From assembly GCA_963704645.1 (NCBI GenBank), contig OY969926.1, positions 64,001-128,000 on the forward strand: DNA of 64,000 nucleotides. The letters run 5' to 3'. Below are positions 1 to 58,240 of the stretch, piece by piece; position 1 is the stretch's first letter, and every line of letters begins with the position of its first letter. The stretch is from an uncultured bacterium (GTDB taxonomy: Bacteria; Patescibacteriota; JACMRA01). The position numbers and the translations under genes are program-made. The notes under the pieces are model-generated. The model had not been told where the DNA came from, ran no database searches, and saw only the letters and a list, made by a program, of their open reading frames with translations.

Positions 1-1
1 C

Positions 2-940
2 CAGTCAATTTATTTTTTTCTACTTAATAGATTTTCTGGCCATTCAGTAGACGGCTATAAAAAGAAGATTTTATTACCAATGCTACCTGAATATATTGGT
101 TATCAGAGTCTATTATTAGACAAAAATAGCATCATTGGTATTCAGCCAATAATTGTTTTAAACAATTCCTCTAACTGCTTTGAGTACTTTCTGAACAAGG
201 AGCAATTAAATATTAATAAGGAAATTGGCTGTATTGTTATATCAAGACCGGCAAATCCTACTGGTAAAATAATTTCAGGTGAGGACTTGAATTATATATT
301 AGATGAAGCTGAGAAATTGGAAATACCAGTTATCATTGATTCTGCTTATAGCGAGCCTTTTCCCTCAATAAATATTGTGCCAACTAAGCCTATAATTCGT
401 AAAAATGTTATAAATACTTACAGCGCTTCAAAAGCAGGAATGCCTGGAGAAAGAGTAGGTATTATAGTTGGAGATCCAGATATAATTAACCAATTTATTA
501 ATTTCCAAACTAATACAATGATGCATTCTTCTGTTTTGGGACAGGCTATACTTGCAAAGGGTTTAGAATCTAATGAAATTTTTGATGTTTCTAAAGAAAC
601 CATAGGACCATATTATTTTTCTGTAGCTAACAAAGTTATTGATCTGTTAAATAAATCCAAAGAACTGCATGATATTCCTTGGAGATACCACAAATACGAA
701 GGTGGCATATTTTTGTGGCTTTGGTTTGAACATTTACCCATCAATGACTTTCAACTTTATCAAGAATTAAAAGAAGAAGGGTTGTTAGTGGTACCTGGAA
801 ATAGTTTTTTTTATAGTTCGTCAAACTGGAATCATGCTCAGCAATGTATTCGGATAAGTCTATCTGCACCACAAAAAGAAATTTTTACTGGAATAAATAT
901 TTTAACAAAATCAATCAAGAAAATATATGAAAATAAATGA
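2..940 (+). CDS. avtA: AvtA-like (valine-pyruvate type) class I/II PLP aminotransferase, 5'-truncated by window edge
   Basis: Frame is open from base 2 (QSIYFFLLNRFSGHSVDGYKKKILLPMLPEYIGY), matching the AvtA N-terminal region. Motifs SRPANPTG, DSAY, SASKAGMPGERVG (PLP Lys), GGIFLWLWF, CIRIS. Confidence 0.85.
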   Translation, partial: QSIYFFLLNRFSGHSVDGYKKKILLPMLPEYIGYQSLLLDKNSIIGIQPIIVLNNSSNCFEYFLNKEQLNINKEIGCIVISRPANPTGKIISGEDLNYILDEAEKLEIPVIIDSAYSEPFPSINIVPTKPIIRKNVINTYSASKAGMPGERVGIIVGDPDIINQFINFQTNTMMHSSVLGQAILAKGLESNEIFDVSKETIGPYYFSVANKVIDLLNKSKELHDIPWRYHKYEGGIFLWLWFEHLPINDFQLYQELKEEGLLVVPGNSFFYSSSNWNHAQQCIRISLSAPQKEIFTGINILTKSIKKIYENK

Positions 941-3482
941 TAAAGATCTGCTAAGTAATCTTAATAAAATTGCAAAACCTCTGTATTCAACATCAATCAT
1001 TGACGCAAGTTCATTTGGGAGAAAGGCGGCATATTTGGGCGAGCTGATAAGTAATGGTGTCAATGTCCCAGAAGGTATTTGCCTAGACAAATCTGTTTAC
1101 AGTTTTTTTAAAAGCCAAGGGATTTTACCTGATTCCTTGATAAACGATATCAAGGAGTATGGCTCTAATAATACACAAATGGCAGTTCGTAGTTCTGCCA
1201 CCTGTGAAGACTCAGAAGAAGAAACTTTAGCAGGTTTATTCAACACCTATTATGCTTATAGTTCACAGGATATCTTAAATTCTATACAAAAAATTTATGA
1301 GGGAGCAAATTCTATTGAAACATTGGAGTCCTTATCGGTTTATGGTATAGACGATAATAATGTTGAATTAGGTGTTATTATTCAGAATCTAATTGAACCT
1401 AGCATTTCTGGAGTAATTTATAACAAATGGTTAAACAACATTTCTTTAGTACAGTACGTTGAGGGCTTTGGTAACAAGCTGGTTGATGGTGAGTTGAATG
1501 GCTACTCAATTATTTTAGACTCAAATGGTAAAATACAAGATTCCTCTGGCTTTGATATTCTAAGTATTGAGGAAAGAATAATTAAACAAATAAATGAGCA
1601 AATTAGAAAAATTAGAAAAATTGATTCTTTTAAAGGAAAAGATATTGATATTGAGTTTGCAGTGTCTAAAACAAATAATATTCTTTACATATTGCAATGC
1701 AGGGTTGTAAATAATCTGCCACCTAGTTTTGACATTGAAGAAAGTGACGAAGGAGTTATTAATTTAATTAAAAGAAGGGTGGCGATTCTTTCGCAAAATG
1801 AAAAAGCAACGATAGGTATTAAGAGCCCTATTTTTTCAAAATCAAATCATAGTGAATTATTACCTTCATCAAAAGAAATGGATGTAGGAATTTTTCAATA
1901 TATTTTTAGTGGATATGAATCAAACCCTGGAGCTATACAAATAGGGAGAAAAGAGATGGGCTATATTTTAGACGAAAGAGCCAATGGGTTAACTTACTTC
2001 ATTGGCGGAGATGCTTACATCTCTATTGCAAAAGACTCACTATCTTACTATATAGGCTTTCCAGACTCAATCGATAGCTACATTGAACAATTGGTAAATA
2101 ATTATTTAAAACAAATTTCTGATAACCATGAACTAGGACACTACCCACAAATGGGTTTATATCTTCAAGAGCCAACAATGCATGAACTAGAGGGTTTATT
2201 TAATGATAAAGCAAGCGAGTACTATGAAATATCTCAGGAATTTAATTTACATTTAGGTAAAATAGCTAAGGTATTTGAAGATGATTACAATAATAAATAT
2301 AAGCCCCAACTAGATTTATTTTTAGATTCTGTTACTGTAAAGATTAATAAAGAAGATGATTCAGAAAAGTTGGTTAGTTTAATTGATCAAGTTTTGTATA
2401 ATTTAAAAAATCACTCGTGCGTGTATTTCGTTATAGCTGCACGGCTTGGTTTTTATTTCACGCAAAAACTAAGGAAGTCCCTACACCATTCAGGAATGGA
2501 TCAAAACTCAATAGATAACTACTTTAGTCTTTTTGTTCAAGGTCTAGATAATAGTGAATTTACAAGATCAAATCTTATAATTGCCGCTTCCGCCAACATA
2601 GCTGAAGCTTCTAGCATAGCATTGAAAGTTATCGGCCATTACAGCACAGGCGAAATGTTGGAAATTCACCCTCCGAGAATTTCTGAATCTTCTAGTGAGC
2701 TTAAATCTTATGTAGAAAGTATTTATAACAGTAATTACATTGAGACTTTTAATACACAAGTTAAAGAGAGAGAAGTTGCTGAATTAGAGATTGTAAATAA
2801 GATTGATGACCTAGGTTTAACTGAAATAATAAAGTTTACCCAAAGGTACATGGGGTTAAGGGAAACTATTAAATACAATTTTGTTAAAGAATATGGAATA
2901 ATTAGACAGTGTTTAGTAAAATTAGAAAAGAATTTCAACCTGCACCAAGGAGATATATTTTATTTATACCCTTGGGAGATAAGTACTTTATTACAGAATC
3001 AAAGTGAATTTACTCATATAATTAAGTACAGAAAAAGACTGCATGATAAATTTAAAAAGGTAAATATGCCTTTTATTATTGATGCAAACAATTTAGATAA
3101 TATTAAGTTTAATTTTTCCATTGTTAATGAACAGGGCAGCCATACAGGTGTATTGGTATCGAAGGGTAAAAATATCGAAGGAATGATAGTTAACAAGAAA
3201 GACTTTATTAGTAATTCAGAAATCAGCGATTATATTAAAGAATTAAAAAGCCAAGGAATAAATGTTATTTTAACGTCAAATCAATTAAGTATAGGTGATG
3301 ATCCTCTTATTGTTTCAAGCGATGCAATACTACTTGGTAAATCTGGTTTTGTTTCGCATGGTTCTCAAAGAGCTAGAGAATTGGGCAAAGGAGCACTGTC
3401 AGGTCTGCCAATTGAATTGTTTACTACTGGATGTTACGTAAGTATAGATTTTAAATCAAAAATAGCAAGAATTTTAAAATAA
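927..3482 (+). CDS. PEP-utilising dikinase-like phosphotransferase (ATP-grasp / central domain / C-terminal phospho-His swivel domain; RPH / Cj1418-type domain order)
   Basis: N-terminal GRKAAYLGEL..VPEG, AVRSSATCED..LAGLF, SGV, GFGNKLVDG, DIEFAV, LQCR. C-terminal GFVSHGSQRARELG. Overlaps the avtA stop. Confidence 0.85.
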   Translation: MKINDKDLLSNLNKIAKPLYSTSIIDASSFGRKAAYLGELISNGVNVPEGICLDKSVYSFFKSQGILPDSLINDIKEYGSNNTQMAVRSSATCEDSEEETLAGLFNTYYAYSSQDILNSIQKIYEGANSIETLESLSVYGIDDNNVELGVIIQNLIEPSISGVIYNKWLNNISLVQYVEGFGNKLVDGELNGYSIILDSNGKIQDSSGFDILSIEERIIKQINEQIRKIRKIDSFKGKDIDIEFAVSKTNNILYILQCRVVNNLPPSFDIEESDEGVINLIKRRVAILSQNEKATIGIKSPIFSKSNHSELLPSSKEMDVGIFQYIFSGYESNPGAIQIGRKEMGYILDERANGLTYFIGGDAYISIAKDSLSYYIGFPDSIDSYIEQLVNNYLKQISDNHELGHYPQMGLYLQEPTMHELEGLFNDKASEYYEISQEFNLHLGKIAKVFEDDYNNKYKPQLDLFLDSVTVKINKEDDSEKLVSLIDQVLYNLKNHSCVYFVIAARLGFYFTQKLRKSLHHSGMDQNSIDNYFSLFVQGLDNSEFTRSNLIIAASANIAEASSIALKVIGHYSTGEMLEIHPPRISESSSELKSYVESIYNSNYIETFNTQVKEREVAELEIVNKIDDLGLTEIIKFTQRYMGLRETIKYNFVKEYGIIRQCLVKLEKNFNLHQGDIFYLYPWEISTLLQNQSEFTHIIKYRKRLHDKFKKVNMPFIIDANNLDNIKFNFSIVNEQGSHTGVLVSKGKNIEGMIVNKKDFISNSEISDYIKELKSQGINVILTSNQLSIGDDPLIVSSDAILLGKSGFVSHGSQRARELGKGALSGLPIELFTTGCYVSIDFKSKIARILK

Positions 3483-3486
3483 ACAT

Positions 3487-4446
3487 ATGACTGAAAACAT
3501 TGACCAGATCTTAAAATACTACCAAATTAATGAGCTAGACTCTACTGAGTCTGTTACTATTAAACATTTTCATGGCTTAGCCAAACATAATATAAAAAGA
3601 CTATCATCAGTTGTAGATTCAAAAGACTTGGTAAAGATAATTAAGGGTGAATTATCTTTTGAAGATTCCCACAGGATTTCAGCTGTTATTGAGAATAAAA
3701 TTTTCTCGACTATAGAATTAGATGAACACAAACTAGTTGATCATTTTAACTCACCTGACTCAATACATTTGTCTGAATTAGGGATACTAAATATAGAGAA
3801 ACAGATTAAGGGTAAGCAAACAGCAATTGAAAAGCTTCTTTCTCAAAGAGATTTGGGATTATTTTTAGTAAGACCAGAAGCCTATCATCTTATTGAAAGA
3901 ATAAAAATTATATTGGAATCAAACGGACTTAGAATAATTCTATCAAAGAAAACGGAAGTAAATTCAGAACAATATTGGGCTTTGTGCAATGAAAGGCTTG
4001 TGGACTCTAGAACCAATATACATGTTAGATCTAGGGCTTTTGGCTACGTAAATAAACCATTGTACCTATTTGTTTTTGAGCGTGGTGATAATTGTTTAAT
4101 TGAAAGCAATAAACCACTTTCTGATTCTCTAAAAGTTATTAAAGGTATTGCTGGATATTATCAAAAAGGTACAATAAGAGGAGATCTACTTTACGAGTCT
4201 CTTCATTCTTATTTTTATGGTGATAATGCCAGATTGTCTCGTTTGGCTGAACTTGCGCTTGACCCTATAAAAATATATGAAACATTATCTCAAGACACAA
4301 ATGTTTTCTATCAAAAAAATGTACTTTATAAAAGGCTAGCTTCACTACCTGGGGTACACTCCCCTGAAAGCCATGAACTGGTAAAAGATATATCTTGCCT
4401 AATGAGCAAATCTGATATTGAGCTTCTCTTGCATCCAATGCCCTAA
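3487..4446 (+). CDS. Nucleoside-diphosphate-kinase-like protein with N-terminal extension
   Basis: LFLVRPEA (cf. IKPD), IKG..GTIRGD, GVHSPES (cf. N..HGSD catalytic His). Confidence 0.7.
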   Translation: MTENIDQILKYYQINELDSTESVTIKHFHGLAKHNIKRLSSVVDSKDLVKIIKGELSFEDSHRISAVIENKIFSTIELDEHKLVDHFNSPDSIHLSELGILNIEKQIKGKQTAIEKLLSQRDLGLFLVRPEAYHLIERIKIILESNGLRIILSKKTEVNSEQYWALCNERLVDSRTNIHVRSRAFGYVNKPLYLFVFERGDNCLIESNKPLSDSLKVIKGIAGYYQKGTIRGDLLYESLHSYFYGDNARLSRLAELALDPIKIYETLSQDTNVFYQKNVLYKRLASLPGVHSPESHELVKDISCLMSKSDIELLLHPMP

Positions 4447-4447
4447 A

Positions 4448-5173
4448 ATGACAAAAAACATTTATTCATACTTGGCTTACCGTGACTACCAAAATTCGGG
4501 CAGTCCTTATTCAGCATTGATTACAAACAATGCTATAGATGTAGCTCTTGATAGAATATTAAAACCTCATGATGTAACCCATCACTTCATATCTGGCTTT
4601 CTCGACGAGCTAGGAATTAATATACTTGGGAAGACAATACCTCAAGCAAGTATTTTAAACGAAATTATAACGATAGCTTTAACCTTAATTACTATCCCAA
4701 CTTATGCCAAAGTAAGAATGGACAGGATAACAAAGAAATTTAATTTAGATAGGATTTCTTCAGAAGATAGTCTTATCTATTATGAGAGAAAGTGCGTAGA
4801 ACTTTTCACACTGAAATACTTAGCTCGGACAATATCTGATTTTAAAGGTTTAGATTATATGATTGATGAAGGTAGAAAAATAATTTATGATCAATTTTCT
4901 GATTTGGAAAATCAAATTATTACATTACAAGAAATTTTTGATATATCAATAGATCTTTCCAAAAAAATAATTCACATTGAACCACAAAGAATTAATAGTT
5001 GGAACGAGATTGCGAATAAACATATATATTGGTTCAACGGCAAAGGCAATAATAAATTCTCCATTGCGATGACAGCGAACCAAAGCTCATTATATGGTAA
5101 ATATACAGATTACGATAAATATTCTAACTCTCTAAACCAAAAAGTTCAATTTATTAGTAAATACTTAATTTAG
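4448..5173 (+). CDS. Hypothetical protein in the dikinase operon
   Basis: ATG 1 nt after the NDK-like stop; 241 aa ORF with no recognisable motif. Confidence 0.7.
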   Translation: MTKNIYSYLAYRDYQNSGSPYSALITNNAIDVALDRILKPHDVTHHFISGFLDELGINILGKTIPQASILNEIITIALTLITIPTYAKVRMDRITKKFNLDRISSEDSLIYYERKCVELFTLKYLARTISDFKGLDYMIDEGRKIIYDQFSDLENQIITLQEIFDISIDLSKKIIHIEPQRINSWNEIANKHIYWFNGKGNNKFSIAMTANQSSLYGKYTDYDKYSNSLNQKVQFISKYLI

Positions 5174-5223
5174 TCATGGTTTATATATTTGACATTAATT
5201 TACAGATCTAAATCTAATATCTT

Positions 5224-5667
5224 ATGCCAAAGCCAACTGATCCAAAAAAGTGGACACACATGTTCACAGATGACATCAAATTTTCTCAAAAAGCTATAAT
5301 ACTTCACCCCTCTGATGAAACTTTTTTAGTGCTTCAAAGATCTTTAAGCTCCAAAACACACCCAGGATATTGGGACTTTGCTGGTGGCAACGTTTTATAT
5401 GGAGATTCTTCCAAAAATTCCTTGCTAAGTGAAGTTAAAGAAGAAACAGGACTATCAATAACAAACGATTTAACACCCTTAGTCGTTGACGGGAAAATGC
5501 GAGAAGAAAATGGATTTTACCGAATCTTTGTTGGATATTTAACAAAAGCCTTGGAGGATAATGTTACCATTAGCCATGAACATATTGATTATAAGTGGGT
5601 ATCAAAAGATGAATTTATGCTGCTTGAAACTGTAGACATACTCAAAGAAATGGTGAAAAAAATATAG
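5224..5667 (+). CDS. NUDIX hydrolase (MutT/Ap4A-like)
   Basis: WDFAGG..GD..LLSEVKEETGL Nudix box; ISHEHIDYKWV. Confidence 0.9.
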   Translation: MPKPTDPKKWTHMFTDDIKFSQKAIILHPSDETFLVLQRSLSSKTHPGYWDFAGGNVLYGDSSKNSLLSEVKEETGLSITNDLTPLVVDGKMREENGFYRIFVGYLTKALEDNVTISHEHIDYKWVSKDEFMLLETVDILKEMVKKI

Positions 5668-5692
5668 GGTATATCATTTTGATACGCCCTAT
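5664..5692. terminator. Probable bidirectional terminator between convergent genes
   Basis: ATAGGG-TATATC-ATTTT-GATACG-CCCTAT hairpin. Confidence 0.55.
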
Positions 5693-5705
5693 TTTAGATG
5701 AACTA

Positions 5706-6395
5706 CTAGAGTTTTGTATTCCATCCTTTTAACGTCCACCCCATTTCATCATAAGAAGAAATGAAAGCTGCAGTGCTATCCAAATCAAGGTATCTTACAC
5801 TTTGAGTGTTGTAACCAAGAATGTAGTGAAAGAAGCACTTAATCACTTTTGCATGAGTAACAATAAGAATATTAGACACCTCATGTGTTTCGCTTTGTTT
5901 AGACAAGACATCTTCCAGCCATCCAGATGCTCTTCTTTCGATCATTTGCTGTGATTCACCATTTGGCGGTTGAAAAAAATAGCCTCTAGCCCTAATTAGA
6001 GCTTTTACCTCTGGTAAATAAGTTTGTTTTTTATCGCACCCTTCCCAGTCGCCCTGATCAATTGGATTAATTTCAGCAACTTTAAGCACTTTATTGCTTA
6101 TAACGCTGTCGACCTTCCCAAGCTCAGAAATGATGATTTCAGCACTCCTAATTGCTCTTAGTGCCTCAGAGCTGTAAATTTGATTAAAGACAATACCAAG
6201 GCTGGCAAGTTTTTTCCCAATAGATTCTGCTTGAGAAATACCCAATGATGTTAGGTCTGACTCAAGACGCTTTCCTAAAATTACATCTTTTACTAAATGA
6301 TCAGTATCACTTTGTCCGTGACGAACCATATAGACATTAATAAGGAATTTTTTCACTATCTTGTCATTATTAAAAGAACTTTTAAGAGATAACAT
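5706..6395 (-). CDS. Histidine phosphatase (phosphoglycerate mutase family)
   Basis: RHGQS, SSEALRAIRSA, GES, IVTH motifs. Confidence 0.9.
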   Translation of the reverse strand: MLSLKSSFNNDKIVKKFLINVYMVRHGQSDTDHLVKDVILGKRLESDLTSLGISQAESIGKKLASLGIVFNQIYSSEALRAIRSAEIIISELGKVDSVISNKVLKVAEINPIDQGDWEGCDKKQTYLPEVKALIRARGYFFQPPNGESQQMIERRASGWLEDVLSKQSETHEVSNILIVTHAKVIKCFFHYILGYNTQSVRYLDLDSTAAFISSYDEMGWTLKGWNTKL

Positions 6396-6451
6396 AAATT
6401 TTTCATAAAGTAAAGCTTGACCTCCCGCATTTTAGTAGAAATTATTTATTA

Positions 6452-7225
6452 ATGATAATACAATCTTTTGATTGGAACAATAATGTAAACGAAAGTAATA
6501 GCATAACTAGTGAGTCTATTAGAGAATTATTTAGTTGTAAGATAGCTCTTATAGTAGTTAAAGATTTTTACACGAATAATGAGTTAAGTGAGTTAAATGA
6601 CAAAATATCTACTGAAAAAATAAGGTGGATTGTCAGGCATACTAGAATGGGACGGTTTGGACTAACAGCTCGAGAACAGCGAAAATTGCTGGCTGAAGAC
6701 AAAGGTGATATTATAGATCAAGTACGAGCAGAATTAAATACTGCGTTAGGAGAAAGATTTGTAGAGAGAATAAAGCAAATATTTAATATTTTTGCCCCTA
6801 CAGAATTAAAAACAGAACAAAATTTTATTTACGCAGCACCTATTATCCGATATTTTCCATATGCTGACTACCATACTGATTTTGTACCTCAACAAGATAA
6901 GGATTGGAACTTTCCAGATATAATCAAGCAATTCTCTGTAAACTTACATTTAAGCGACCACATTGGTAATGAAGGATCTCTCAGGTTGGCAAAACGAGAG
7001 TATGATTATGACGATGATAAATATGCAATTGGCGACTTTGGCTATTCAGAAGAAATAGTTAAAGGCTATAAATTAGTTTCTTATATCCCAAAAAAAGGTG
7101 ATCTAGTAATAATCAATACTCAGAACTACCATTGTTTCACGCAGTCATCCAATCTTATTGAAATGATTGGTTTGTTTGGAGCTTTGACGAAATCAGACTC
7201 GGAGCATATTTATTTGTGGCCATAA
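6452..7225 (+). CDS. Fe(II)/2-oxoglutarate-dependent oxygenase superfamily protein
   Basis: HTD...H triad; QFSVNLHL, GSL, PKKGDLVIINTQNYH typical of the DSBH fold. Confidence 0.75.
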   Translation: MIIQSFDWNNNVNESNSITSESIRELFSCKIALIVVKDFYTNNELSELNDKISTEKIRWIVRHTRMGRFGLTAREQRKLLAEDKGDIIDQVRAELNTALGERFVERIKQIFNIFAPTELKTEQNFIYAAPIIRYFPYADYHTDFVPQQDKDWNFPDIIKQFSVNLHLSDHIGNEGSLRLAKREYDYDDDKYAIGDFGYSEEIVKGYKLVSYIPKKGDLVIINTQNYHCFTQSSNLIEMIGLFGALTKSDSEHIYLWP

Positions 7226-7226
7226 T

Positions 7227-7850
7227 ATGATTAAACTTTACCTAGTAAGACATGGAGAGTCCGTAATTAATTTAAATAGCAAGACATTTGGGAGTGGATC
7301 TCAAGGGGGTTTAACACACACTGGTGTAGATCAAGCACAAAAAACAGGTGAATGGTTTAAACAGGAAAATATACATTTAGATTACTTTATCACCTCACCC
7401 TATGAAAGAGCCGAAAGTACAATAAATATTATTTTAAAAACTTTAAATTTTGATATTAATAAAGTAATAATTGACCCTTCGCTTTCTGAATGGAATAGAG
7501 GAAGATATTCAGCAATGCCAAAAAGTGAAGCCTGCGATTTGTTGGGAATAAAAAAAAGGGGAGATCTTGGGGCTTGGTTTAATCTGGAAGAGGGTGAGTC
7601 CATTAAACTAATGCAGGCTCGTTTTATAATTTGGATGAATGAAATTACAAACAAATACTATAAAGATGATGTATCAGTTCTAGTTATAACCCATGGTCAT
7701 TTTTTAAAATTTGGGCTTATGTCTATTTTCAACACGCCTGATAATATGCAGAAACTTATAAAAATTAATAACTGTGGGATAACACGTATTGATTTTGTAA
7801 ATAATGAGTGGATTCCTGGAATGATGAATTTTACTGATCACTTAGATTAA
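7227..7850 (+). CDS. Histidine phosphatase family protein
   Basis: LYLVRHGES, TSPYERA, LSEWNRG, GES, VITHG, NCGIT. Confidence 0.92.
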   Translation: MIKLYLVRHGESVINLNSKTFGSGSQGGLTHTGVDQAQKTGEWFKQENIHLDYFITSPYERAESTINIILKTLNFDINKVIIDPSLSEWNRGRYSAMPKSEACDLLGIKKRGDLGAWFNLEEGESIKLMQARFIIWMNEITNKYYKDDVSVLVITHGHFLKFGLMSIFNTPDNMQKLIKINNCGITRIDFVNNEWIPGMMNFTDHLD

Positions 7851-7884
7851 ATTTTAGCCTAAAATTGTATTTTCTAACTCACTT

Positions 7885-8412
7885 ATGCTCGGACCAAAAA
7901 TTATAGTAGATAGCAATATTACTTTACGTGAATTTCAGAAAGATGATACGTTGCTTTGTCTTAAGTGGAATAACGATATAGACTCTCAAAAGTACATGCC
8001 TGAACCTTTTGAAGTTAGAACAATTTTAGATGAGAATGAGTTTTTAGAAGAAGCAACCAAAGAAGAAGATGGTATTTACTGGACTATTGAAGACAGCGCT
8101 ACTTCAACACCAATAGGAATAGTTTCTGTTACTGAAATAAGCCAGCATCACGGGCTTGGTGAGATTGGTATTATTATTGGCGAAAAAGCCTATCACAGTA
8201 AAGGTATTGCAAGTAAGGTAATTGCAGGTGTTTTAGACTATTGTAAAAGTAATGGTTTAAGAAGAATAACCGCAGAATATGAAGAAGGAAACATTGGTAT
8301 GCAAAAAGCCTTGGAAAAAAATAGTTTTATTTTGGAGGCTAAATGCATTGATTCCAGAGTAAAGAATAGTCTTCCAATTAATACTTTTAGATATTATAAG
8401 TTGATTGATTAG
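7885..8412 (+). CDS. GNAT N-acetyltransferase (RimJ/RimL type)
   Basis: ITLREF, EIGIIIGEKAYHSKGIA, NIGMQKALEKNSF. Confidence 0.9.
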   Translation: MLGPKIIVDSNITLREFQKDDTLLCLKWNNDIDSQKYMPEPFEVRTILDENEFLEEATKEEDGIYWTIEDSATSTPIGIVSVTEISQHHGLGEIGIIIGEKAYHSKGIASKVIAGVLDYCKSNGLRRITAEYEEGNIGMQKALEKNSFILEAKCIDSRVKNSLPINTFRYYKLID

Positions 8413-8418
8413 AGTAAT

Positions 8419-8438
8419 TATAGTTTAGGTAATAGCCC
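8419..8438 (+). repeat. 20-bp direct repeat, copy 1 (upstream of second NUDIX gene)
   Basis: TATAGTTTAGGTAATAGCCC; 18/20 identical to 8948-8967. Confidence 0.7.
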
Positions 8439-8484
8439 CCAGCCAATTTACATAATATAATAAAAGTCTTTGTTTAATCAATAT

Positions 8485-8952
8485 ATGCCAAATTTAGAAT
8501 CACAAAAATACAGAGCTAGTGTTGCTGGAATGTTCATTAAAGATAACAGAGAGGTTCTTTTAGTACAAAACAATTCGTTTGGTGCCGATGAGTGGGATTT
8601 TCCTAAAGGAGGTATGAATCTGGGCGAAGACGAAGAAGATACTTTGAAAAGAGAGATACAAGAAGAGCTTGGTGACAAAATTAAATATTCAATAATTAGA
8701 GCAAGTTCATGCAATATAATTTACACTTGGTCTAAAGAAAAGCAAGCAAGGGAGGGTATGCGTGGTCAGGCAAGAATTAGTTATTGGTTAAAATATATTG
8801 AAGAAGAAATTGAAATTGATACAAGCGAACTTAGAGACTATAAATGGGTAGCAGTGACAGAATTGGAAGAAGTTCTGAAAAAGTCTAACTGGCCTTTAGA
8901 AATAGTTGAAAGTCTATTGTTTGATTTAAAAAGTGTATTAAGACAGGTATAG
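8485..8952 (+). CDS. NUDIX hydrolase (RppH-like)
   Basis: YRASVAG, WDFPKGG..GEDEEDTLKREIQEELG; ATG at 8485 preferred over TTG 8470. Confidence 0.9.
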   Translation: MPNLESQKYRASVAGMFIKDNREVLLVQNNSFGADEWDFPKGGMNLGEDEEDTLKREIQEELGDKIKYSIIRASSCNIIYTWSKEKQAREGMRGQARISYWLKYIEEEIEIDTSELRDYKWVAVTELEEVLKKSNWPLEIVESLLFDLKSVLRQV

Positions 8953-9130: not shown

Positions 9131-9430
9131 TTATTTATTGCCATTTAATTTATCAAAATGACTTTTTATCTTCTTAAATTGGTCTGTCATTTGTGGTGGT
9201 TTAGGTTTTATACCTTCAAATAGTTTTTCTAAACTAATTCCTAATACTCCAGCTATATTTACTAGATTATTAAATGATATATTATTCTCCCCTCTTTCCA
9301 CAGCCCCAATAAATGTTCTATGAAGGCCAGACATCATTGCAAGCTCTTCTTGAGATAAATTAAGGCTTTCTCTGGTTAGCTTTATGTTCTTACCTAACTG
9401 TATTAAATAGTTGCTAGAATTGTTTTCCAT
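9131..9430 (-). CDS. XRE-family HTH regulator (C-protein-like)
   Basis: LGKNIK..R....LSQEELA..SGLHRTFIGAVERGENNIS. Confidence 0.9.
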   Translation of the reverse strand: MENNSSNYLIQLGKNIKLTRESLNLSQEELAMMSGLHRTFIGAVERGENNISFNNLVNIAGVLGISLEKLFEGIKPKPPQMTDQFKKIKSHFDKLNGNK

Positions 9431-9477
9431 GAAGCCAATCAAACCTATTTGACAAAGTTTATACTACAGTGTTTGTA

Positions 9478-9608: not shown

Positions 9609-9680
9609 AAATTTAACCTTCCAAACTTTATTAAAGAAACAACATTGACAAATTATACTATCTGGTATAGTTTAATTATT

Positions 9681-11231
9681 ATGCTTCAAGCAATTATATA
9701 CTGCCGTGTTTCTAGTGAAAAACAGGTAACTCAAGGACATGGTTTAGATAGCCAAGAAAAAAGATGTAGAGGGCACGCAAAAAGTCGGGGTTATAAAGTA
9801 ATTAAAATTTTTAGAGAAGAAGGTGTGTCTGGAAAACATTTAATTAGGCCAGAGATGGAAAATTTAATTCAATACCTTTCTAAAAATGCAACAAAAGAAA
9901 ACCCTGTCGCTGTTATTATTGATGATTTAAAAAGATTCGGCCGTGAAACTGAGAACCACTTTTCTCTCAAAAAGAGGATTTATGATAAAAATGGGTTTCT
10001 TGATTCTCCAAGTTTTAGATTTGAACAAAACCCTAATAACAAATTTCTTGAAACAATGTTGGTGGCACACGGAACTTTAGAACGGGAAGAAAATGCCATA
10101 CATGTTAAAAATAAAATGGTTGCCAGATTAGAATCTGGGTATTGGACAAGTAAAGCACCAACTGGCTATAAAATAGTGAATAAAACTGGAAGTGGTAAAA
10201 TACTAGTTATAGATGAAACTTATGGACCAGTTATAAAACAAGCATTGGAAAACTTTTCAAATCAGATTATTTTAACACAAATTGATTTCTGCAATTATCT
10301 TAACAAGCACGGTGTAAAAATTAGCGCAGAAGGAGCAAGAGGAATTTTAAAAAGTGCTGTTTATGCTGGCTATTTAGGAGGAAATGGGTACACAGTAACT
10401 TTAAGACCAGCAAAGCATGAGGGGTTAATTAATTGGAGTACCTACGAGAAGATACAAGGTTTAATCAAAGGCAAGGCCAAGGTAATATATCACTCAGACA
10501 ACGCTACAGACTTTCCTTTAAGAAACTTTATAAAATGTGCCACTTGCCAAAACTTAATGTGCTCTAATTGGGTTGCAGGAAGAAGTAAAAAATATCCCTA
10601 TTATGTTTGTAAGAACAGGTATTGCGATGAATTTAACAAAAATATTTCAAGGGAAGATGTTGAAAGTGAATTTGTAACCATTTTAGAAACAATAACACCC
10701 AAAGGAAATGTATTAAACTTAGCTGAGGCTATTTTAAAAGATGTTTGGAAAAATCAAGATACAGATAACTCAAAAATCGAAAAGGCTCTTAAAACGAAGC
10801 TAAATGCAATTAAACTAGAGTCTGGAAATATAATTGATAGAATATCTAAGACCGAGAGGCAATCTGTGATCAGCATCTATGAAAATAAGTTAGAGGAAAT
10901 TGAAATTGAAAAAGAAAATTTAACAAACCAAATAAAAAATTTAAATACTAACAAGCCAAACTTTCAAACCAGCTTAAAATTAGTTTTAGAATTTATACAA
11001 AATGTAGGAAATATCTGGTCTAAAGGTAATTTAGAGCTTAAACGTTTGGTTTTAAAATTGGTTTTTGATAACTTCCTAGTTTATAGTAAAAAAGATGGTT
11101 TTCAAACCGCCACTTTATCTGGAATATATCAGCTATTTTCTGTTTTTGTTACTACCAAAACAAGTATGGTGGACCTTAGCGGGTTTGAACCGCTCACCTC
11201 TTCCATGCCATGGAAGCGCTCTACCAAATGA
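9681..11231 (+). CDS. Large serine recombinase (integrase)
   Basis: AIIYCRVSS catalytic Ser, EEGVSGK..RP, DDLKRFGR, recombinase domain, Zn ribbon CATC...YYVC..C, coiled coil. The TTG at 9645 is the -35 box (TTGACA-17-TAGTTT), so ATG 9681 is the likely start. Confidence 0.95.
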   Translation: MLQAIIYCRVSSEKQVTQGHGLDSQEKRCRGHAKSRGYKVIKIFREEGVSGKHLIRPEMENLIQYLSKNATKENPVAVIIDDLKRFGRETENHFSLKKRIYDKNGFLDSPSFRFEQNPNNKFLETMLVAHGTLEREENAIHVKNKMVARLESGYWTSKAPTGYKIVNKTGSGKILVIDETYGPVIKQALENFSNQIILTQIDFCNYLNKHGVKISAEGARGILKSAVYAGYLGGNGYTVTLRPAKHEGLINWSTYEKIQGLIKGKAKVIYHSDNATDFPLRNFIKCATCQNLMCSNWVAGRSKKYPYYVCKNRYCDEFNKNISREDVESEFVTILETITPKGNVLNLAEAILKDVWKNQDTDNSKIEKALKTKLNAIKLESGNIIDRISKTERQSVISIYENKLEEIEIEKENLTNQIKNLNTNKPNFQTSLKLVLEFIQNVGNIWSKGNLELKRLVLKLVFDNFLVYSKKDGFQTATLSGIYQLFSVFVTTKTSMVDLSGFEPLTSSMPWKRSTK

Positions 11232-11242
11232 GCTAAAGGCCC
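11167..11242 (-). tRNA. tRNA-Ala(GGC)
   Basis: GGGCCTTTAGCTCATTTGGTAGAGCGCTTCCATGGCATGGAAGAGGTGAGCGGTTCAAACCCGCTAAGGTCCACCA; G3:U70, encoded CCA. Confidence 0.97.
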
Positions 11243-11452: not shown

Positions 11453-11872
11453 ATGTCAATCATTAAAAAATTCTTAGCTGGTAGCATTTTAGCTCTAGCA
11501 CTTTTCGCCTTTGTTTCAGCTGTTCCAGCTTCCGCACAAAGTTTACTAGCTCCAACATGTGGAGGATCAACAGGCAACGCTTGTCCTTTAATTGGAGACA
11601 CTCAAATTGATGGTTCCAAAGAAGGCCTTTCAGGTATTATTTTAACAATCGCCAGATTTGCAGTTTACATATTAGGAGCTATTGCTGTACTGTTCTTAGT
11701 ATACGGTGGTTTTCTATATGTTACTGACGATGGAAGTGGTTCTAAAGCCAAACAAGGAGGTACAATTTTTAGAAACGCTGTTGTTGGTTTAATTCTAGCC
11801 ATCGCCGCTTTCGCAATTGTAAACGTAATTGGAAGCTTGGTATCTGGAAACTTAGTTGAAGGTATTCAATAA
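11453..11872 (+). CDS. CPR-type pilin (VirB2/TrbC-like)
   Basis: Signal peptide (PASA/Q), Cys pair, GAIAVLFLVYGGFLYV..G....AK....RNAVVGLIL. Confidence 0.85.
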   Translation: MSIIKKFLAGSILALALFAFVSAVPASAQSLLAPTCGGSTGNACPLIGDTQIDGSKEGLSGIILTIARFAVYILGAIAVLFLVYGGFLYVTDDGSGSKAKQGGTIFRNAVVGLILAIAAFAIVNVIGSLVSGNLVEGIQ

Positions 11873-11896
11873 ACTTAATTAGTTTAAAAACAAAAC

Positions 11897-11924
11897 AAGG
11901 CCCCGAAAGGGGCTTTACATTTTT
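11897..11924 (+). terminator. Intrinsic terminator after pilin
   Basis: AAGGCCCC-GAAA-GGGGCTTT then T-rich tail. Confidence 0.8.
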
Positions 11925-11977
11925 GCAAAAATATGAGTATAATAGAGGTAGAAGAGTTAATTTAGGAGTTTAGAATT

Positions 11978-12523
11978 ATGAAGAGTTTATTTCCAGCTTT
12001 GTTAGTATTTGGAGGAGCTACCTTAGTTTCTCAGTTATCTTTTTCAGAAAGGGCAATTGCTCAAAACTACATTCCACTGAATTCCCAAATTGTTGAGCGT
12101 TGTAAAATTGCTAGAACATTTGACGCTGAATATCGAGTTGGAGGTGGTTGCAATTTTTTCCATGTGACTGCATACTTTAAGGGAAAATTTAGTAACCCAA
12201 TCGTCAACAATTCATCAGGCTGGATTTTGCTAGAAACTCCAAGCGGCAAACCAATAGGTATTTGCTATAGAGCAGGAACCAAGGTTCACCCGAATCTTTA
12301 TGGGTATCAATGCCAAGATGAAGTATCTCAGCCACAAACAACTTGGCAAAACTCTGGAAACACTGGTTACTACAATCAAACCCCAGTGCAACAACGACCT
12401 ACTTTTAGGGTATGTGCAAATACAGGAACTAGAAATACTACAAGTGTTTCTGGCAAGATTGGAGATTGGCGTTTAAACACCTCAACCACAACCTATCAAA
12501 ATGGAAACGGTTGTAATTACTAA
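11978..12523 (+). CDS. Secreted Cys-containing hypothetical protein
   Basis: AGGAG SD, signal peptide ending AIA/Q, 6 Cys. Confidence 0.75.
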   Translation: MKSLFPALLVFGGATLVSQLSFSERAIAQNYIPLNSQIVERCKIARTFDAEYRVGGGCNFFHVTAYFKGKFSNPIVNNSSGWILLETPSGKPIGICYRAGTKVHPNLYGYQCQDEVSQPQTTWQNSGNTGYYNQTPVQQRPTFRVCANTGTRNTTSVSGKIGDWRLNTSTTTYQNGNGCNY

Positions 12524-12592
12524 AAATTTCTTTACCGTTCTGGCTTAGATACAATTTATCAAGCCCATGGGAATAAAATAACAACTTATCGT

Positions 12593-12625
12593 TCTAGTTA
12601 TCACCTTTGGTAACTAGACTTTTTT
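12593..12625 (+). terminator. Intrinsic terminator
   Basis: TCTAGTTATCA-CCTT-TGGTAACTAGA-CTTTTTT. Confidence 0.75.
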
Positions 12626-12648
12626 ATTGGGCGAAAATTTGAATTAAA

Positions 12649-12933
12649 CCTGTAGCGGCGAAGCTTGCGAGCCATTAACTCTAAAAATCATATAACTAAT
12701 GGATATCTCGCAAAGTTAAAAATTCCGCTCTGTAGAGGGGTGGCAAATTCGTAGAATTTGACGGGGTGTTTCCGTATAAGAATAACTTTTGTAATACACA
12801 TCTGAAATTTTTTATATTTTAATGACGAATTAAAATAAAACCCGTAGCGGCGAAGCTTGCGAGCCACACACTTTGTAAAATCAATTATAGAATTTTCAAA
12901 ACAAAAAAATGGAGGGACAGGCCCTCCTCTACA
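12649..12933. repeat. Cluster of palindromic repeats: REP-A at 12649-12674 and 12841-12866, double-hairpin repeat 12725-12770, GTAG variant 12911-12933(-)
   Basis: GTAGCGGCGAAGCTTGCGAGCCA copies identical to those at the RAYT locus. Confidence 0.85.
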
Positions 12934-12948
12934 GTATATACTTATTTC

Positions 12949-13572
12949 TTACTTGCAACTCCACTGACCTGCTTGACCTCTGGCAAACATGTAGGTTGCA
13001 ACGTAGATTTGAGCTTTTGGATCCCAGATACTGGCGTCAGCTAAACCAATTCGTTTTGCATTAGCAGCAAAAGTTTTAGGCATAAACTGGAACAAACCAG
13101 AAGCTCCACTTCCACCACGGTTTACTGCATTAGCACGCCCTCCGCTTTCGCAGTACATAACCCTAATTACTTGGTCTGCATTGCAACCTAGCTCATTGCA
13201 ACGTTCACGAATTAAACTTTCGTAATCGAAACTGGCAAAACTTGTTGAACTTGCTTTTGCTGAAAGAGTAGCTGCAGCTTTTATTTTGTCAGCTTTCTCT
13301 TTAGCAATTCTAGCTTGCTCGGCTTTTTGTTTTTCTTGCTCTTCTGCAATGCGTTTTTCTTCGGCAATGCGTCTGTCTTCTTCAATTTTAGCTTGAATTA
13401 AAGGAAGGGATTGCGTAGTATAATAACTTTGCAAAGTTGTGTAATCAGATGCTAAGGAATTATAACTTCGCACTGAAATTGGTAAATATTCTTGGCTAAT
13501 TGTATTAGCTGAGACTGAAATTGGGTTTATAATAGCTAAAGTTGCTAGTAAAAGGATTTGAGCTTTAAGCAC
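12949..13572 (-). CDS. Secreted lytic transglycosylase (SLT domain) with coiled-coil linker
   Basis: VMYCESGGRANAVN, ASGLFQF, WSC end; signal peptide. Confidence 0.9.
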   Translation of the reverse strand: MLKAQILLLATLAIINPISVSANTISQEYLPISVRSYNSLASDYTTLQSYYTTQSLPLIQAKIEEDRRIAEEKRIAEEQEKQKAEQARIAKEKADKIKAAATLSAKASSTSFASFDYESLIRERCNELGCNADQVIRVMYCESGGRANAVNRGGSGASGLFQFMPKTFAANAKRIGLADASIWDPKAQIYVATYMFARGQAGQWSCK

Positions 13573-55374: not shown

Positions 55375-55520
55375 GTTTTAACTAGGCTTTTTGTGTGTAA
55401 ATTTGTCAAAGAGCAATCTTGCAATCCAACTCCAAGGCCAACACTATCATTATTAGTCTTTACCACCCAGACTGCTCACCGTTAGTATTGCTAGAATTTT
55501 AATTAATTTGAGTTTCAAGA

Positions 55521-55566
55521 GCTTAGACCCTGAAACAAGTTCAGGGTGACAGGCTCAAAATATTGT
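55521..55566 (+). repeat. Family C repeat (upstream of gltX)
   Basis: GCTTAGACCCTGAAACAAGTTCAGGGTGACAGGCTCAAAATATTGT. Confidence 0.8.
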
Positions 55567-55663
55567 GTCGGGATAAACTCTATCTATTATTTGATAATTC
55601 ACACACAGCGTTGACAAAAAATAATAGCACATTTAGTATTAGATGGTGTTGCGTTAAAGTAAT

Positions 55664-55739
55664 GCCAAATTAGCTCAGTTGGTAGAGCAACGGTTTTGTA
55701 AACCGTAGGTCGTTGGTTCGAACCCTACATTTGGCTCCA
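55664..55739 (+). tRNA. tRNA-Thr(TGT)
   Basis: GCCAAATTAGCTCAGTTGGTAGAGCAACGGTTTTGTAAACCGTAGG..TTCGAA..ATTTGGCTCCA; TTGACA-17-TAGTAT promoter upstream. Confidence 0.95.
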
Positions 55740-56068
55740 TTTCTGGATATCCTTTTTTGAAGAATTTTTAAAATTAAACACAAATAAAAATCAATTTAAA
55801 AATTAGTACATTGAATACTAAATGAATAAAATTTTAAAACTTTTTTCCCAAAATAAAACTTTTTGGATACTAATTCTAACTTCATTTGTAGTTATGTTGC
55901 TTGGAGTAATAGCTAAACATTACACACCCTCATAAGTAAAACTGAGAGGTGTTTTTTGTTATTTTAGTAAGAATATATAACACTTGCTAGTTTTTTTGAT
56001 AATCAAAACAGGTCACTAATTGACATTTAGTCTATCGCCAGCAACTCTTAATTTATTAATCACTCCCA

Positions 56069-56518
56069 ATGCTCAGCGTAAATAATTATAGTATAAAATA
56101 CATAGACAAATGTAACCAGCAAATAAATACACAACTTTCTGCTTACAGTAACTTACTAAGCAAGTTAAACGGACAAACTTCTGCAGCTAGCATTGAAATT
56201 TATAATTTTGAAAACCTTTTCTTCAACAATTTAGTTTTAGTTTTAGACAATTTATTTGCACACAGAAGCAGGGCTATAGAAAAAAAGGATGGTAACGCTT
56301 TGAACGAAGTAAGAGTTTTATGCAATTCAATAATTAATAATAATGCTGAATTGTTAGAAGACCCTTCGCTTAAATTAAACTCAGAAACTTCTGTTTTAAA
56401 ATATACTGCCGGCCAAAAAATTAAGTTAAATTTAGCAGACTTCAGCAGTCTTTCCAAAGCATACTTTCAAGAAATGAAAGATAAATATTCTGAGAAATCG
56501 GAAAAATTGATAAAGTAA
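56069..56518 (+). CDS. Conserved-looking hypothetical protein
   Basis: FFNNLVLVLD..FAHR.R..EKKDGNALNEVR; coupled to the next gene. Confidence 0.8.
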   Translation: MLSVNNYSIKYIDKCNQQINTQLSAYSNLLSKLNGQTSAASIEIYNFENLFFNNLVLVLDNLFAHRSRAIEKKDGNALNEVRVLCNSIINNNAELLEDPSLKLNSETSVLKYTAGQKIKLNLADFSSLSKAYFQEMKDKYSEKSEKLIK

Positions 56519-56522
56519 AATT

Positions 56523-56786
56523 ATGACATTAGAATCTTTTCAATCTTTTATAGATAAAATAAAACTACAAACCGGCAGAAATATAGAAGAATATGCCAAA
56601 TTTGCAAAGGCCAAAGGTTTCTTTAAACCCGACGTTAAGGCTGGCCAAATTGTAGATTGGCTTAAAAAAGATTTTGGCTTTAAACAAGGTGATGCAATGG
56701 CTATGTACGGGTTATTTAAATATATGGGCTTAATTACTAAACCCGACAGGGCAGCAAAACCAAATGATAGTATTGACAAATTGTAG
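56523..56786 (+). CDS. DUF4287-like protein
   Basis: SFQSFIDKI...TGR...KAGQIVDWLKKDFG...GDAMA. Confidence 0.7.
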   Translation: MTLESFQSFIDKIKLQTGRNIEEYAKFAKAKGFFKPDVKAGQIVDWLKKDFGFKQGDAMAMYGLFKYMGLITKPDRAAKPNDSIDKL

Positions 56787-56821
56787 GTTTTTAAGATTTA
56801 AAGAATAGAACACTAATAATT

Positions 56822-57151
56822 ATGGCCAAGAGCATTGAAATCACCTATTTTCCAACTGCAACAGCTAGATGCTTAAATTGCGGAAGTATCTACACAGCTG
56901 GAATGACAACAGAAAGTTTAACAATTGAAGTTTGCGGAAACTGTCATCCATTTTATACACAACAAGACACTTTGGTAGATACAGCTGGTAGAATTGAAAA
57001 ATTCCAAAACAGAATGGCTAAAGCTACAGCTGCATTAGCTAAAAAAGACTCAACCAAGAAGAGAAAGTTTAAGCAATCTTTAGCAGACATAACAGCAGAA
57101 CCTGATTTTTCTGAAATAGAAAACACAGAGACTGTTGACAAGGAAGCATAA
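56822..57151 (+). CDS. rpmE: 50S ribosomal protein L31 (Zn-binding type) with C-terminal extension
   Basis: CLNCG...EVCGNCHPFYT...VDTAGRIEKF. Confidence 0.95.
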   Translation: MAKSIEITYFPTATARCLNCGSIYTAGMTTESLTIEVCGNCHPFYTQQDTLVDTAGRIEKFQNRMAKATAALAKKDSTKKRKFKQSLADITAEPDFSEIENTETVDKEA

Positions 57152-57196
57152 TTTTTTTCTTCTATACTAAACTTTCAGACCTTACGAATTTAGCAG

Positions 57197-57715
57197 ATGA
57201 AGATTTATTACACACAGCCAACTCTTAGCATTAAGTCTAAGAACTCTAAGTTTCTTAAAGGGTCTTTTAAGTCTACCGTTAAACAATCTGGTTTAAAGAA
57301 ATCTATAGATTCCTGGATAGAAAGTAATAACAGCTTTTATTTCCAAATTGTAGGAGTATTTATTTTAACAATTGGAATGATTTTGTCTTTACAAAACTTT
57401 TTAGATGGAACCAAGTTGAATGCTTCTGCTAAAGAAAACAGCGAAGTTAGAATATTAACTAATTTCAAACAATCTACTAAAGCCAACGCCGATTCTAATA
57501 ATTTACAAGAATTAACAGATGTTGTAATTGCTCCTGTCAATAACACTGTTGTAGAGCAAACTTACGTTGAATACACTGTAAAAAAGGGAGATAGCCTAGC
57601 TTTAATAGCCAGTAAATTTAAAATTACTTTAGAAGATGTAGCTAAATTAAACAGTCTTGATACAAAAGCTAGCTTAAACGTTGGTTCAAAAATTAAAGTA
57701 CCTTTCCAGGGTTAG
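57197..57715 (+). CDS. Membrane-anchored LysM protein
   Basis: One TM; YTVKKGDSLALIASKF.I....AKLN....LNVGSKIKVP. Confidence 0.92.
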   Translation: MKIYYTQPTLSIKSKNSKFLKGSFKSTVKQSGLKKSIDSWIESNNSFYFQIVGVFILTIGMILSLQNFLDGTKLNASAKENSEVRILTNFKQSTKANADSNNLQELTDVVIAPVNNTVVEQTYVEYTVKKGDSLALIASKFKITLEDVAKLNSLDTKASLNVGSKIKVPFQG

Positions 57716-57943
57716 TTTAAAAATATTTACAGAGGCTAATTAATAGAATCTATGATTATGCCTATGTTGAATATTACACTAATAAATTATTAAGTATCTT
57801 CTAACAATATCAATCGATTAAAAGTTATGATCTGATAAAGAAGGTATATAGCACATTTACTAGAAGGATACTCACAAATAATATGCTGGACAAATACCAA
57901 CTTTTCTTGACAAAGAGCTAACGAATAGACATTTTTATTTTAC

Positions 57944-58027
57944 GCCCAGATGGTGAAATGGTAGACACACTAGCCTTAGGAGCTAGCGCCGCAAGGTATG
58001 AGAGTTCAAGTCTCTCTCTGGGCACCA
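57944..58027 (+). tRNA. tRNA-Leu(TAG)
   Basis: GCCCAGATGGTGAAATGGTAGACACACTAGCCTTAGGAGCTAG..GTTCAAGTC..CTGGGCACCA. Confidence 0.95.
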
Positions 58028-58047
58028 TAAAACTATTTAAAATATTA

Positions 58048-58070
58048 AACCCCGCAAGGGGTTGTTTTTT
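58048..58070 (+). terminator. Intrinsic terminator after tRNA-Leu
   Basis: AACCCC-GCAA-GGGGTT-GTTTTTT. Confidence 0.85.
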
Positions 58071-58240
58071 ATTATCTACCTTTACAGTACCAAACTAACC
58101 CAAATTCGTGTAAAATGCTAGGTAATTCCAATTTACAATTACTTAATATTAACCTCTACATAGTTTGGAAACTGTGGCTAATCATTAATTAGAAAATCAT
58201 TCTAGGGAGAAAGTGAGTCAGCTGATCTCCGAGCTGCTAA

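Follow-up and report, generated by a model that had tools for sequence, protein, structure and literature searches.

Small-molecule dikinases of the rifampin phosphotransferase (RPH) type are few, and the unusual chemistry revealed by each of those characterized includes antibiotic inactivation, phenol activation, prodiginine ligation and the formation of P–N bonds. The L-glutamine kinase Cj1418 of Campylobacter jejuni is reportedly a dikinase of this domain order that phosphorylates the amide of an amino acid, after which a nucleotidyltransferase and a further kinase encoded at Cj1415–Cj1418 are said to build a nucleotide-linked phosphoramidate. The locus considered here follows the same logic in its set of genes, a likeness of description and not of sequence: a dikinase (DK) is encoded together with an open reading frame (ORF) carrying a nucleotidyltransferase motif (ORF0) and with a protein of the nucleoside diphosphate kinase (NDK) fold (ORF3). 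The Campylobacter nucleotidyltransferase is, however, said to be of a different fold class. With an AvtA-class aminotransferase (AT) and the orphan ORF4, these genes stand in the order ORF0, AT, DK, ORF3 and ORF4 across the left edge of the window, that is, the whole stretch of 64,000 nucleotides analyzed (G000:C1:64001-128000, from a genome consisting of a single contig of 1.27 Mb). They are read here, tentatively, as a lineage-specific operon of phosphoryl transfer.

The mechanism of RPH proceeds through a phosphohistidine, with ATP being converted to AMP, Pi and the phosphorylated acceptor (PMC4844700). The window dikinase shares the domain order of RPH (RPH-Lm, PDB 5FBS/5HV1; NF041857), with the TIM barrel absent. 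The two differ in context, which is antibiotic resistance for RPH and amino-acid enzymes for the window dikinase; in precomputed Pfam lists PF27448 is found on most of the more distant RPH-like matches (P0043 onwards), whereas just 2 of the 41 clusters of orthologues carry it. A swivel His is also present in HpeHI, CreHI and PpsAB, further dikinases of small molecules that resemble RPH, and in CreH and phenylphosphate synthase a Ser precedes the catalytic His, as it does in the window dikinase (PMC12167813). Unlike the window dikinase, each of these enzymes consists of two separate proteins, and their substrates are phenols, in catabolic clusters; the likeness to the window dikinase is one of description.

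Full-length orthology of the dikinase is common to the locus and to operons in which a dikinase and a phosphatase are linked to the Trp repressor (TrpR) or tryptophanyl-tRNA synthetase (TrpRS), and these dikinases are grouped together against RPH-like outgroups. In contrast to these operons, the window locus is without TrpR, an adjacent TrpRS and the coupled 203-aa phosphatase, and has new partners instead: AvtA, the NDK-fold protein and the ORF with the nucleotidyltransferase motif.

The five-gene operon and its dikinase

Five genes make up the left block, a single operon with tight coupling. Three nucleotides separate ORF0 from AT, AT and DK overlap by 14 nt, and gaps of 4 nt and 1 nt follow between DK and ORF3 and between ORF3 and ORF4 (ATG at 4448); ORF4 is separated from the first NUDIX gene by 50 nt. 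Translational coupling of four genes had been proposed in an earlier note on this DNA; the tight coupling (gaps of −14 to 4 nt) stands, and the count becomes five with ORF0, which lies upstream of the window. Coordinates given as L002 refer to the locus including this upstream DNA, L002:9461-15299 corresponding to G000 55,461-61,299. All genes described in the earlier note were recovered at their places and with their domains in the ORF list and in Pfam/NCBIfam scans. The content, which consists mainly of enzymes of phosphoryl and nucleotidyl transfer and of hydrolysis with amino-acid enzymes among them, is supported as well.

The operon is kept intact in a second strain, represented by contigs of sequencing run X1 with ~97% identity to the window DNA: the segment that begins with ORF0 and includes the recombinase and the tRNA gene at the right end of the island is contiguous at this identity, with no break. 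In a word-index search the only close relatives were full-length proteins with 96% (DK), 94% (ORF3) and 98% (ORF0) identity, the longest contig being 40,280 bp for each of the three.

The domain order proposed for the dikinase in the earlier note, that of pyruvate phosphate dikinase (PPDK) and RPH, is borne out by a PPDK_N match (PF01326, E 1.6e-24) and the swivel His with no TIM barrel, PF02896 (PEP/pyruvate TIM barrel) giving no match. The C-terminal mobile domain of PEP-utilizers (PF00391) is matched weakly (E 0.004, 17.1 bits at a cut-off of 23.1), and the central domain has no Pfam match. Models of PEP synthase give 52-106 bits against cut-offs of 598-976, and the RPH model NF041857 gives 66.4 bits against 999. 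The best sequence matches in the PDB are RPH chains at E 1e-11, over residues 77-275 of the ATP-grasp only.

Orthologues of the dikinase form ~41 full-length clusters with 33-39% identity and 90-99% coverage in a word-index search, and ordinary RPH-like proteins rank after them at no more than 27% identity. An alignment of 26 sequences holds 94 invariant columns, including His811 in VSHG.QRARELG. The identity of the window dikinase to its orthologues is highest in the central domain (0.37, against 0.35 for the swivel and 0.32 for the ATP-grasp), and 55 of the 480 columns of this acceptor domain are invariant. Rooting the family tree with RPH-like outgroups leaves the window dikinase on a long branch that is sister to all the remaining members, so that a changed role is possible; dikinases linked to the asparagine synthase AsnB form a clade nested within the phosphatase-linked ones. 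By its sequence, the window dikinase is thus placed as a divergent member of a widespread, uncharacterized branch of the RPH-type group.

A scan of genome contigs with the single protein gave no relative, but the family alignment did find orthologue loci, in metagenome-assembled genomes (MAGs) of Gammaproteobacteria, in several Patescibacteria, in Paenibacillus ferrarius and in an archaeal MAG. Among plasmids and phages the dikinase matched plasmids in its ATP-grasp part only, and viral contigs contained neither a dikinase relative nor a relative of ORF3. In full-text literature searches on phosphotransferase and swivel-domain dikinase topics, neither this branch of dikinases nor the family of ORF3 was the subject of any paper returned.

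Gene neighborhoods were counted by Pfam in 18 orthologue loci (L003-L022, with L008 and L017 left out as too short). The gene directly downstream of the dikinase encodes a His_Phos_1 protein of ~203 aa in nine loci, a low-molecular-weight phosphatase (LMWPc) in one, the glutamine-hydrolyzing AsnB in six (confirmed by TIGR01536 at L016), the Trp repressor in one and a protein of unknown family in the remaining one. Within ~5 kb, TrpRS is encoded in 5 of the 18 loci (TIGR00233 was passed by both proteins tested), TrpR in five, and either of the two in nine. An amino-acid or aminoacyl-tRNA gene (TrpRS, TrpR, AsnB, OTCase, Asp/Glu racemase, YbaK or chorismate mutase) is present within the same distance in 15 of the 18 loci. 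The dikinase family thus occurs in two forms, one with the ~203-aa His_Phos_1 and often near TrpR/TrpRS, the other with AsnB and with HAD or histidine phosphatase genes nearby. The window dikinase is followed by ORF3, and so by neither phosphatase nor AsnB; the window genome has no match to the TrpR family (PF01371), and domain scans of the island detected no TrpRS.

The NDK-fold protein and the other operon products

The description of ORF3 as NDK-like in the earlier note is right at the level of the fold, although the protein lies outside PF00334, because its AlphaFold2 model (alignment of 50 sequences; pLDDT 91.8, pTM 0.91) superposes on NDK chains. With VIA-align, model residues 119-318 are aligned to 1lwx_A (150 residues) with Z 14.3 and an rmsd of 2.4 Å over 138 residues; 246 chains are found at Z of at least 8, and the best 50 are all NDKs. 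NDKs likewise fill the top rows of a Foldseek search, where the best E is 1.3e-3 and the TM-score per target reaches 0.77. The model points to the ORF3 family as a previously unrecognized family of the NDK fold.

The likeness to NDK (PF00334) consists in the superposition of residues 119-319 on whole NDK chains; profile alignment suggests that the invariant His may correspond to the catalytic His. ORF3 differs by its helical N-terminal domain of 118 residues, an insertion of ~43 residues, the missing PF00334 match and its fused relatives. Residues invariant or nearly so among the 50 sequences include R129-P130-E131, Y163, Y167, R183, K219-G220, T229, R231-G232, D259-P260 and H291. No PF00334 match was obtained for ORF3 at E up to 10, two of the 50 family members are matched (best E 0.0011), and a genome-wide search with PF00334 detected the canonical ndk only. 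In a PDB profile search NME5 was reached at E 0.09.

Profile comparison by hhalign of the untrimmed ORF3 family with nine NDKs of the order covered the first 44 columns only, at a probability of 3%. After the 43-residue insertion had been cut out, the probability was 21% and the score 28.4, against 9.8 for the reversed query, and none of 20 column shuffles reached this score (maximum 23.2). The trimmed alignment pairs VRPE, TLRGD and GVH291IP of ORF3 with KPD, TIRGD and the catalytic NxxH of NDK; it is only with the insertion removed, and at the probability of 21%, that His291 is paired with the catalytic His.

Exhaustive HMMER searching gave 97 relatives of ORF3, 48 of them with E ≤ 1e-10 and two with E ≤ 1e-30. 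Eight unusually long relatives were scanned: two have a C-terminal APH kinase domain and three have weak P-loop matches (AAA_16/AAA_33, below the Pfam cut-off), these fused relatives being P0131, P0149, P0160, P0166 and P0198. Of 400 other genomes searched in the phylum, three contain the family, and in two of these three a NUDIX gene stands beside the ORF3 relative, once coupled to an APH-NUDIX fusion. It is absent from 301 genomes of another phylum; word-index searching with ORF3 gave only the near-identical strain, and no match was found in phages or plasmids. The best ESM Atlas scores were 0.76 for ORF3 and 0.83 for ORF4, which corresponds to low recognition.

On a 2.6-kb activated-sludge contig (L107:433-2623) an ORF3 relative follows two coupled ORFs, in which APH-like and CYTH-like motifs could be read by eye and for which PDB sequence search gave no match. 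The role of a PSRP-like regulator was considered for ORF3 and dropped, as there was no PF03618 match; it is also disfavored by the swivel motif of the dikinase, in which the position of the regulatory Thr, two residues ahead of the His, is taken by Val.

The aminotransferase, called AvtA-like in the earlier note, deserves this name: the full gene (L002:17681-18940, 419 aa, starting 320 nt upstream of the window) scores 449.6 bits over its full length against NF006967 (valine–pyruvate transaminase, cut-off 402). It resembles AvtA in score, but is only 41-42% identical to its nearest homologues in the phylum, which occur in 3 of 400 other genomes and never near a dikinase. ORF0 contains the motif CGS...DSDID, read by eye and typical of Pol-beta nucleotidyltransferases, and weak matches below the cut-off cover the motif residues (NTP_transf_2, E 0.081; MdcG, E 0.11); no Pfam family is above threshold. 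Its single-sequence structure model has a pLDDT of 35.8, and neither a PDB sequence search nor a search among phages and plasmids gave a match. ORF4 has no recognized family and two marginal partial matches in the 400 genomes.

The island and the enzymes downstream

The operon lies on a mobile element. Integration at a tRNA gene, as proposed in the earlier note, is confirmed by 15-nt repeats at both ends, by an empty site in the sister genome G025 and by a serine recombinase at the right end. The repeat, ATGGTGGACCTTAGC, is the 3' end of tRNA-Ala(GGC) and occurs once at each end of the island, where no copy is expected by chance; because it bounds the element on both sides, the length of the island is 22,334 bp from repeat to repeat. 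G025, of the same genus and used here for synteny and for the empty site, is syntenic on both flanks, and its tRNA-Ala(GGC) site is empty, L002:~6846 being joined directly to window ~11166. The earlier note had also called for the left part of the island; it was recovered, with the left repeat, the Shango defense system and ORF0 located upstream of the window. From left to right the island contains a MerR-like gene, an unknown gene, Shango, a YhcG fragment, the enzyme cluster, the HTH gene and the serine recombinase. The recombinase ORF overlaps the tRNA-Ala gene by 65 nt and crosses the att repeat, so that its C-terminus would change upon excision.

The Shango system (L002:9461-15299, minus strand) was detected by PADLOC as adjacent SngC (E 2.9e-198), SngB (E 2.4e-159) and SngA (E 6.6e-9), followed by the YhcG-nuclease fragment. 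Contigs of the second strain give no cover over Shango, and one of them continues there into unlike sequence; since this strain keeps the enzyme cluster, the cluster and Shango are separable.

Between the YhcG fragment and ORF0, 1008 nt (L002:15572-16579) are without any ORF of at least 60 aa, and this stretch is indel-rich between the two strains. An Rfam scan of L002, including the gene-free stretch, matched no family, and promoter and terminator scans gave counts no higher than in shuffles. Just beyond the island, at L002:2575-4683, a class II tRNA synthetase (Asp/Lys/Asn type) is fused at its C-terminus to DUF2000. To the right of the tRNA gene, window 11453-13572 encodes a T4SS pilin and an SLT transglycosylase; these genes are kept in synteny in G025 and are therefore chromosomal and outside the island.

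Downstream of ORF4 the cluster continues with two NUDIX proteins, two histidine phosphatases (HP1 and HP2), an oxygenase and a GNAT acetyltransferase (Table 1). The oxygenase candidate matches Pfam WelO5 weakly (29.6 bits, cut-off 27, N-terminal part only), and its H141-x-D143...H227 triad is invariant in an alignment of three sequences with two distant homologues from proteobacterial plasmids; no residue that would bind 2OG was recognized. On the P. aeruginosa plasmid, according to the annotations, the homologue stands between a DMT transporter gene and genes for a Zn-dehydrogenase, proC and phytanoyl-CoA dioxygenase. The oxygenase was found in none of 400 other genomes of the phylum, and PDB sequence search gave no match.

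In G025 the order is NUDIX1-GNAT-LdcA-NUDIX2 (L072:3240-5783), and this block belongs to no island and is ~31 kb away from the tRNA site; in G000 the LdcA and HAD orthologues are located elsewhere in the genome. The G025 block, in which LdcA is an LD-carboxypeptidase, adjoins a NACHT/NB-ARC ATPase. GNAT and NUDIX2 have 90-92% nucleotide identity between G025 and the window, and the flanking core genes have 78-85%; this excess over the core genes hints at recent exchange. The second strain differs at the 3' end of NUDIX2 (window 8915-8949), where 1185 other nucleotides take the place of 33 nt.

Table 1. Features of the operon and of the right part of the island (window positions, unless preceded by L002)
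Feature	Position	Strand	Characteristics
ORF0, 365 aa	L002:16580-17677	+	upstream of window, 3 nt before AT, same direction as operon; Pol-beta nucleotidyltransferase motif
AvtA-class aminotransferase (AT), 3' part	1-940	+	Pfam Aminotran_1_2; NCBIfam NF006967
ATP dikinase (DK), RPH domain order	927-3482	+	ATP-grasp, central acceptor domain, His swivel; His811 in motif VSHGSQRARELG
ORF3	3487-4446	+	helical N-terminal domain 1-118, NDK-fold domain 119-319; invariant His291
ORF4, orphan	4448-5173	+	coupled to ORF3; alternative TTG start 4418
NUDIX1	5224-5667	+	Nudix box slightly degenerate (by eye); G025 orthologue with 68% protein identity
Histidine phosphatase HP1 (His_Phos_1)	5706-6395	-	RHG motif
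Fe(II)/2OG-type oxygenase candidate	6452-7225	+	HxD...H triad
Histidine phosphatase HP2 (His_Phos_1)	7227-7850	+	RHG-type; 1-nt gap after oxygenase
GNAT acetyltransferase (Acetyltransf_3)	7885-8412	+	G025 orthologue with 86% protein identity
NUDIX2	8470-8952	+	canonical Nudix box; G025 orthologue with 90% protein identity
HTH_3 (Cro/C1-type) regulator of island	9131-9442	-	Pfam
Large serine recombinase	9645-11231	+	right end of island; ORF runs across attR into tRNA gene
tRNA-Ala(GGC)	11167-11242	-	15-nt att repeat at 11166-11180 (attR); left copy L002:6832-6846

Possible function of the operon

It is quite possible, though we would stop short of calling it probable, that the five genes form an operon specific to this lineage, whose enzymes carry out phosphoryl transfer on a metabolite of amino-acid type. 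This reading, which we prefer to the others, is suggested by the coupling of the genes, by the pairing of ORF3 relatives with APH or P-loop domains and with NUDIX genes, and by the amino-acid flavor of the dikinase neighbors. The dikinase would phosphorylate an acceptor X through phospho-His811 (ATP → AMP + Pi + X-P). X-P would then be extended, or joined to a nucleotide, by the NDK-fold protein (through phospho-His291), by the protein with the nucleotidyltransferase motif, or by both, and the NUDIX enzymes and histidine phosphatases would remove such groups again. The amino-acid skeleton would be supplied or tailored by the aminotransferase and the oxygenase. The operon could be a recent assembly of components that function with other partners elsewhere: a phosphatase or AsnB in the case of the dikinase, frequently with TrpR/TrpRS nearby, and APH-type or P-loop domains together with NUDIX in the case of the NDK-fold protein. 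A pathway shared by the operon enzymes is plausible rather than shown, and no match of the cluster to a characterized pathway, which the earlier note had named as a possible outcome, was found.

Several results weigh against such a pathway. The co-occurrence of the cluster genes elsewhere, whose absence the earlier note had named as a refutation, largely failed to appear: when 16 island proteins were searched by tblastn in 20 loci with a dikinase orthologue (L003-L022), AT, ORF0, ORF3, ORF4, the oxygenase and GNAT were found in none, and only weak histidine phosphatase matches (L008, L013) and one NUDIX match (L009) were obtained. The ORF3 family was found in none of five whole genomes with a dikinase orthologue, none of the 26 other genomes of the order has the dikinase, and the combination of the five genes was found in no other species. 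As the dikinase has its conserved acceptor domain in common with orthologues that stand beside only a phosphatase or AsnB, the substrate of the dikinase is probably a common metabolite and not an intermediate made by the cluster. The nucleotidyltransferase call for ORF0 rests on its motif and sub-threshold matches, its structure model being unusable, and the NDK fold of ORF3 by itself shows no function. The right half is a mosaic, because NUDIX1, GNAT and NUDIX2 form a separate block in G025; HP1, the oxygenase and HP2 look inserted between NUDIX1 and GNAT. Both phosphatases are of the ordinary RHG type and not members of the ~203-aa subfamily coupled to dikinase orthologues.

Much of this would be expected if the genes were accreted with no pathway in common, as unrelated accessory, house-cleaning or detoxifying enzymes each acting on its own substrates, with a spacing that reflects a compact genome; the NUDIX proteins, phosphatases and GNAT would be such enzymes, and the dikinase and ORF0 would be an RPH-like kinase and an ANT-like nucleotidyltransferase. 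We regard this as somewhat unlikely, yet as a serious rival: beyond the missing co-occurrence and the mosaic right half, the genes are rare and patchy in the phylum (among the 400 genomes, three with the ORF3 family, three with AT, none with the oxygenase and two with marginal ORF4 matches), and the orthologue locus L022 also holds an AadA-like nucleotidyltransferase and a GNAT in no conserved order. Accretion accounts poorly, however, for five genes of the same direction with tight junctions that a second strain has kept. That relatives of ORF3 are repeatedly paired with APH or P-loop domains and NUDIX also fits the window locus, where the dikinase stands before ORF3 and NUDIX after it, and chance does not predict it. 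The dikinase could instead keep the usual task of its family, in which a kinase and a phosphatase would serve the supply of an amino acid, possibly tryptophan; HP1 or HP2 would then stand in for the phosphatase, and AT, ORF0, ORF3 and ORF4 would be passengers. The phosphatase or AsnB genes directly downstream in most orthologue loci, TrpR or TrpRS nearby in half of them, the conserved acceptor domain and two His_Phos_1 genes within 4.5 kb speak for this proposal. The genome, however, has no TrpR family match, and HP1 and HP2 are outside the coupled subfamily and not adjacent to the dikinase, one of them being on the opposite strand. With the window dikinase a long-branch sister of the others, for which a changed role is possible, we consider continuation of the usual task unlikely.

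A use of the operon as an anti-phage or inter-bacterial weapon, as suggested in the earlier note, would involve a toxic phosphorylated or nucleotide-like molecule, from which the cell would be protected by the NUDIX enzymes, phosphatases and GNAT. The operon does lie on a mobile island directly beside a complete Shango system, and PDC-S07, a candidate model of PADLOC, is matched by the two NUDIX proteins (E ~1e-12). The second strain, however, keeps the operon with no cover over Shango, and the remaining cluster proteins are without a PADLOC match. The dikinase and ORF3 families were not found in viral contigs, and dikinase orthologues stand mostly among amino-acid genes and not among defense genes, so that we judge a weapon highly unlikely. 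A bolder form of the phosphoryl-transfer reading would make the operon a biosynthetic route to a phosphorylated, possibly nucleotide-linked amino-acid derivative (a phosphoester or phosphoramidate) used by the island against phages or neighbors. The ORF3 family would at the same time be a new class of NDK-fold phosphotransferase, catalyzing the reaction that comes second, after a small-molecule kinase of the dikinase, APH or P-loop kind, and not acting on ordinary nucleoside diphosphates. This combined proposal is speculative and, in our estimate, very unlikely.

If the phosphoryl-transfer pathway exists, it would provide a handle on two uncharacterized families at once, the dikinase branch and the ORF3 family, and would represent a rare metabolic gain through a mobile element in a bacterium with a reduced genome. 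If there is no pathway, the result still places both families and shows the assembly of an island from exchangeable blocks.

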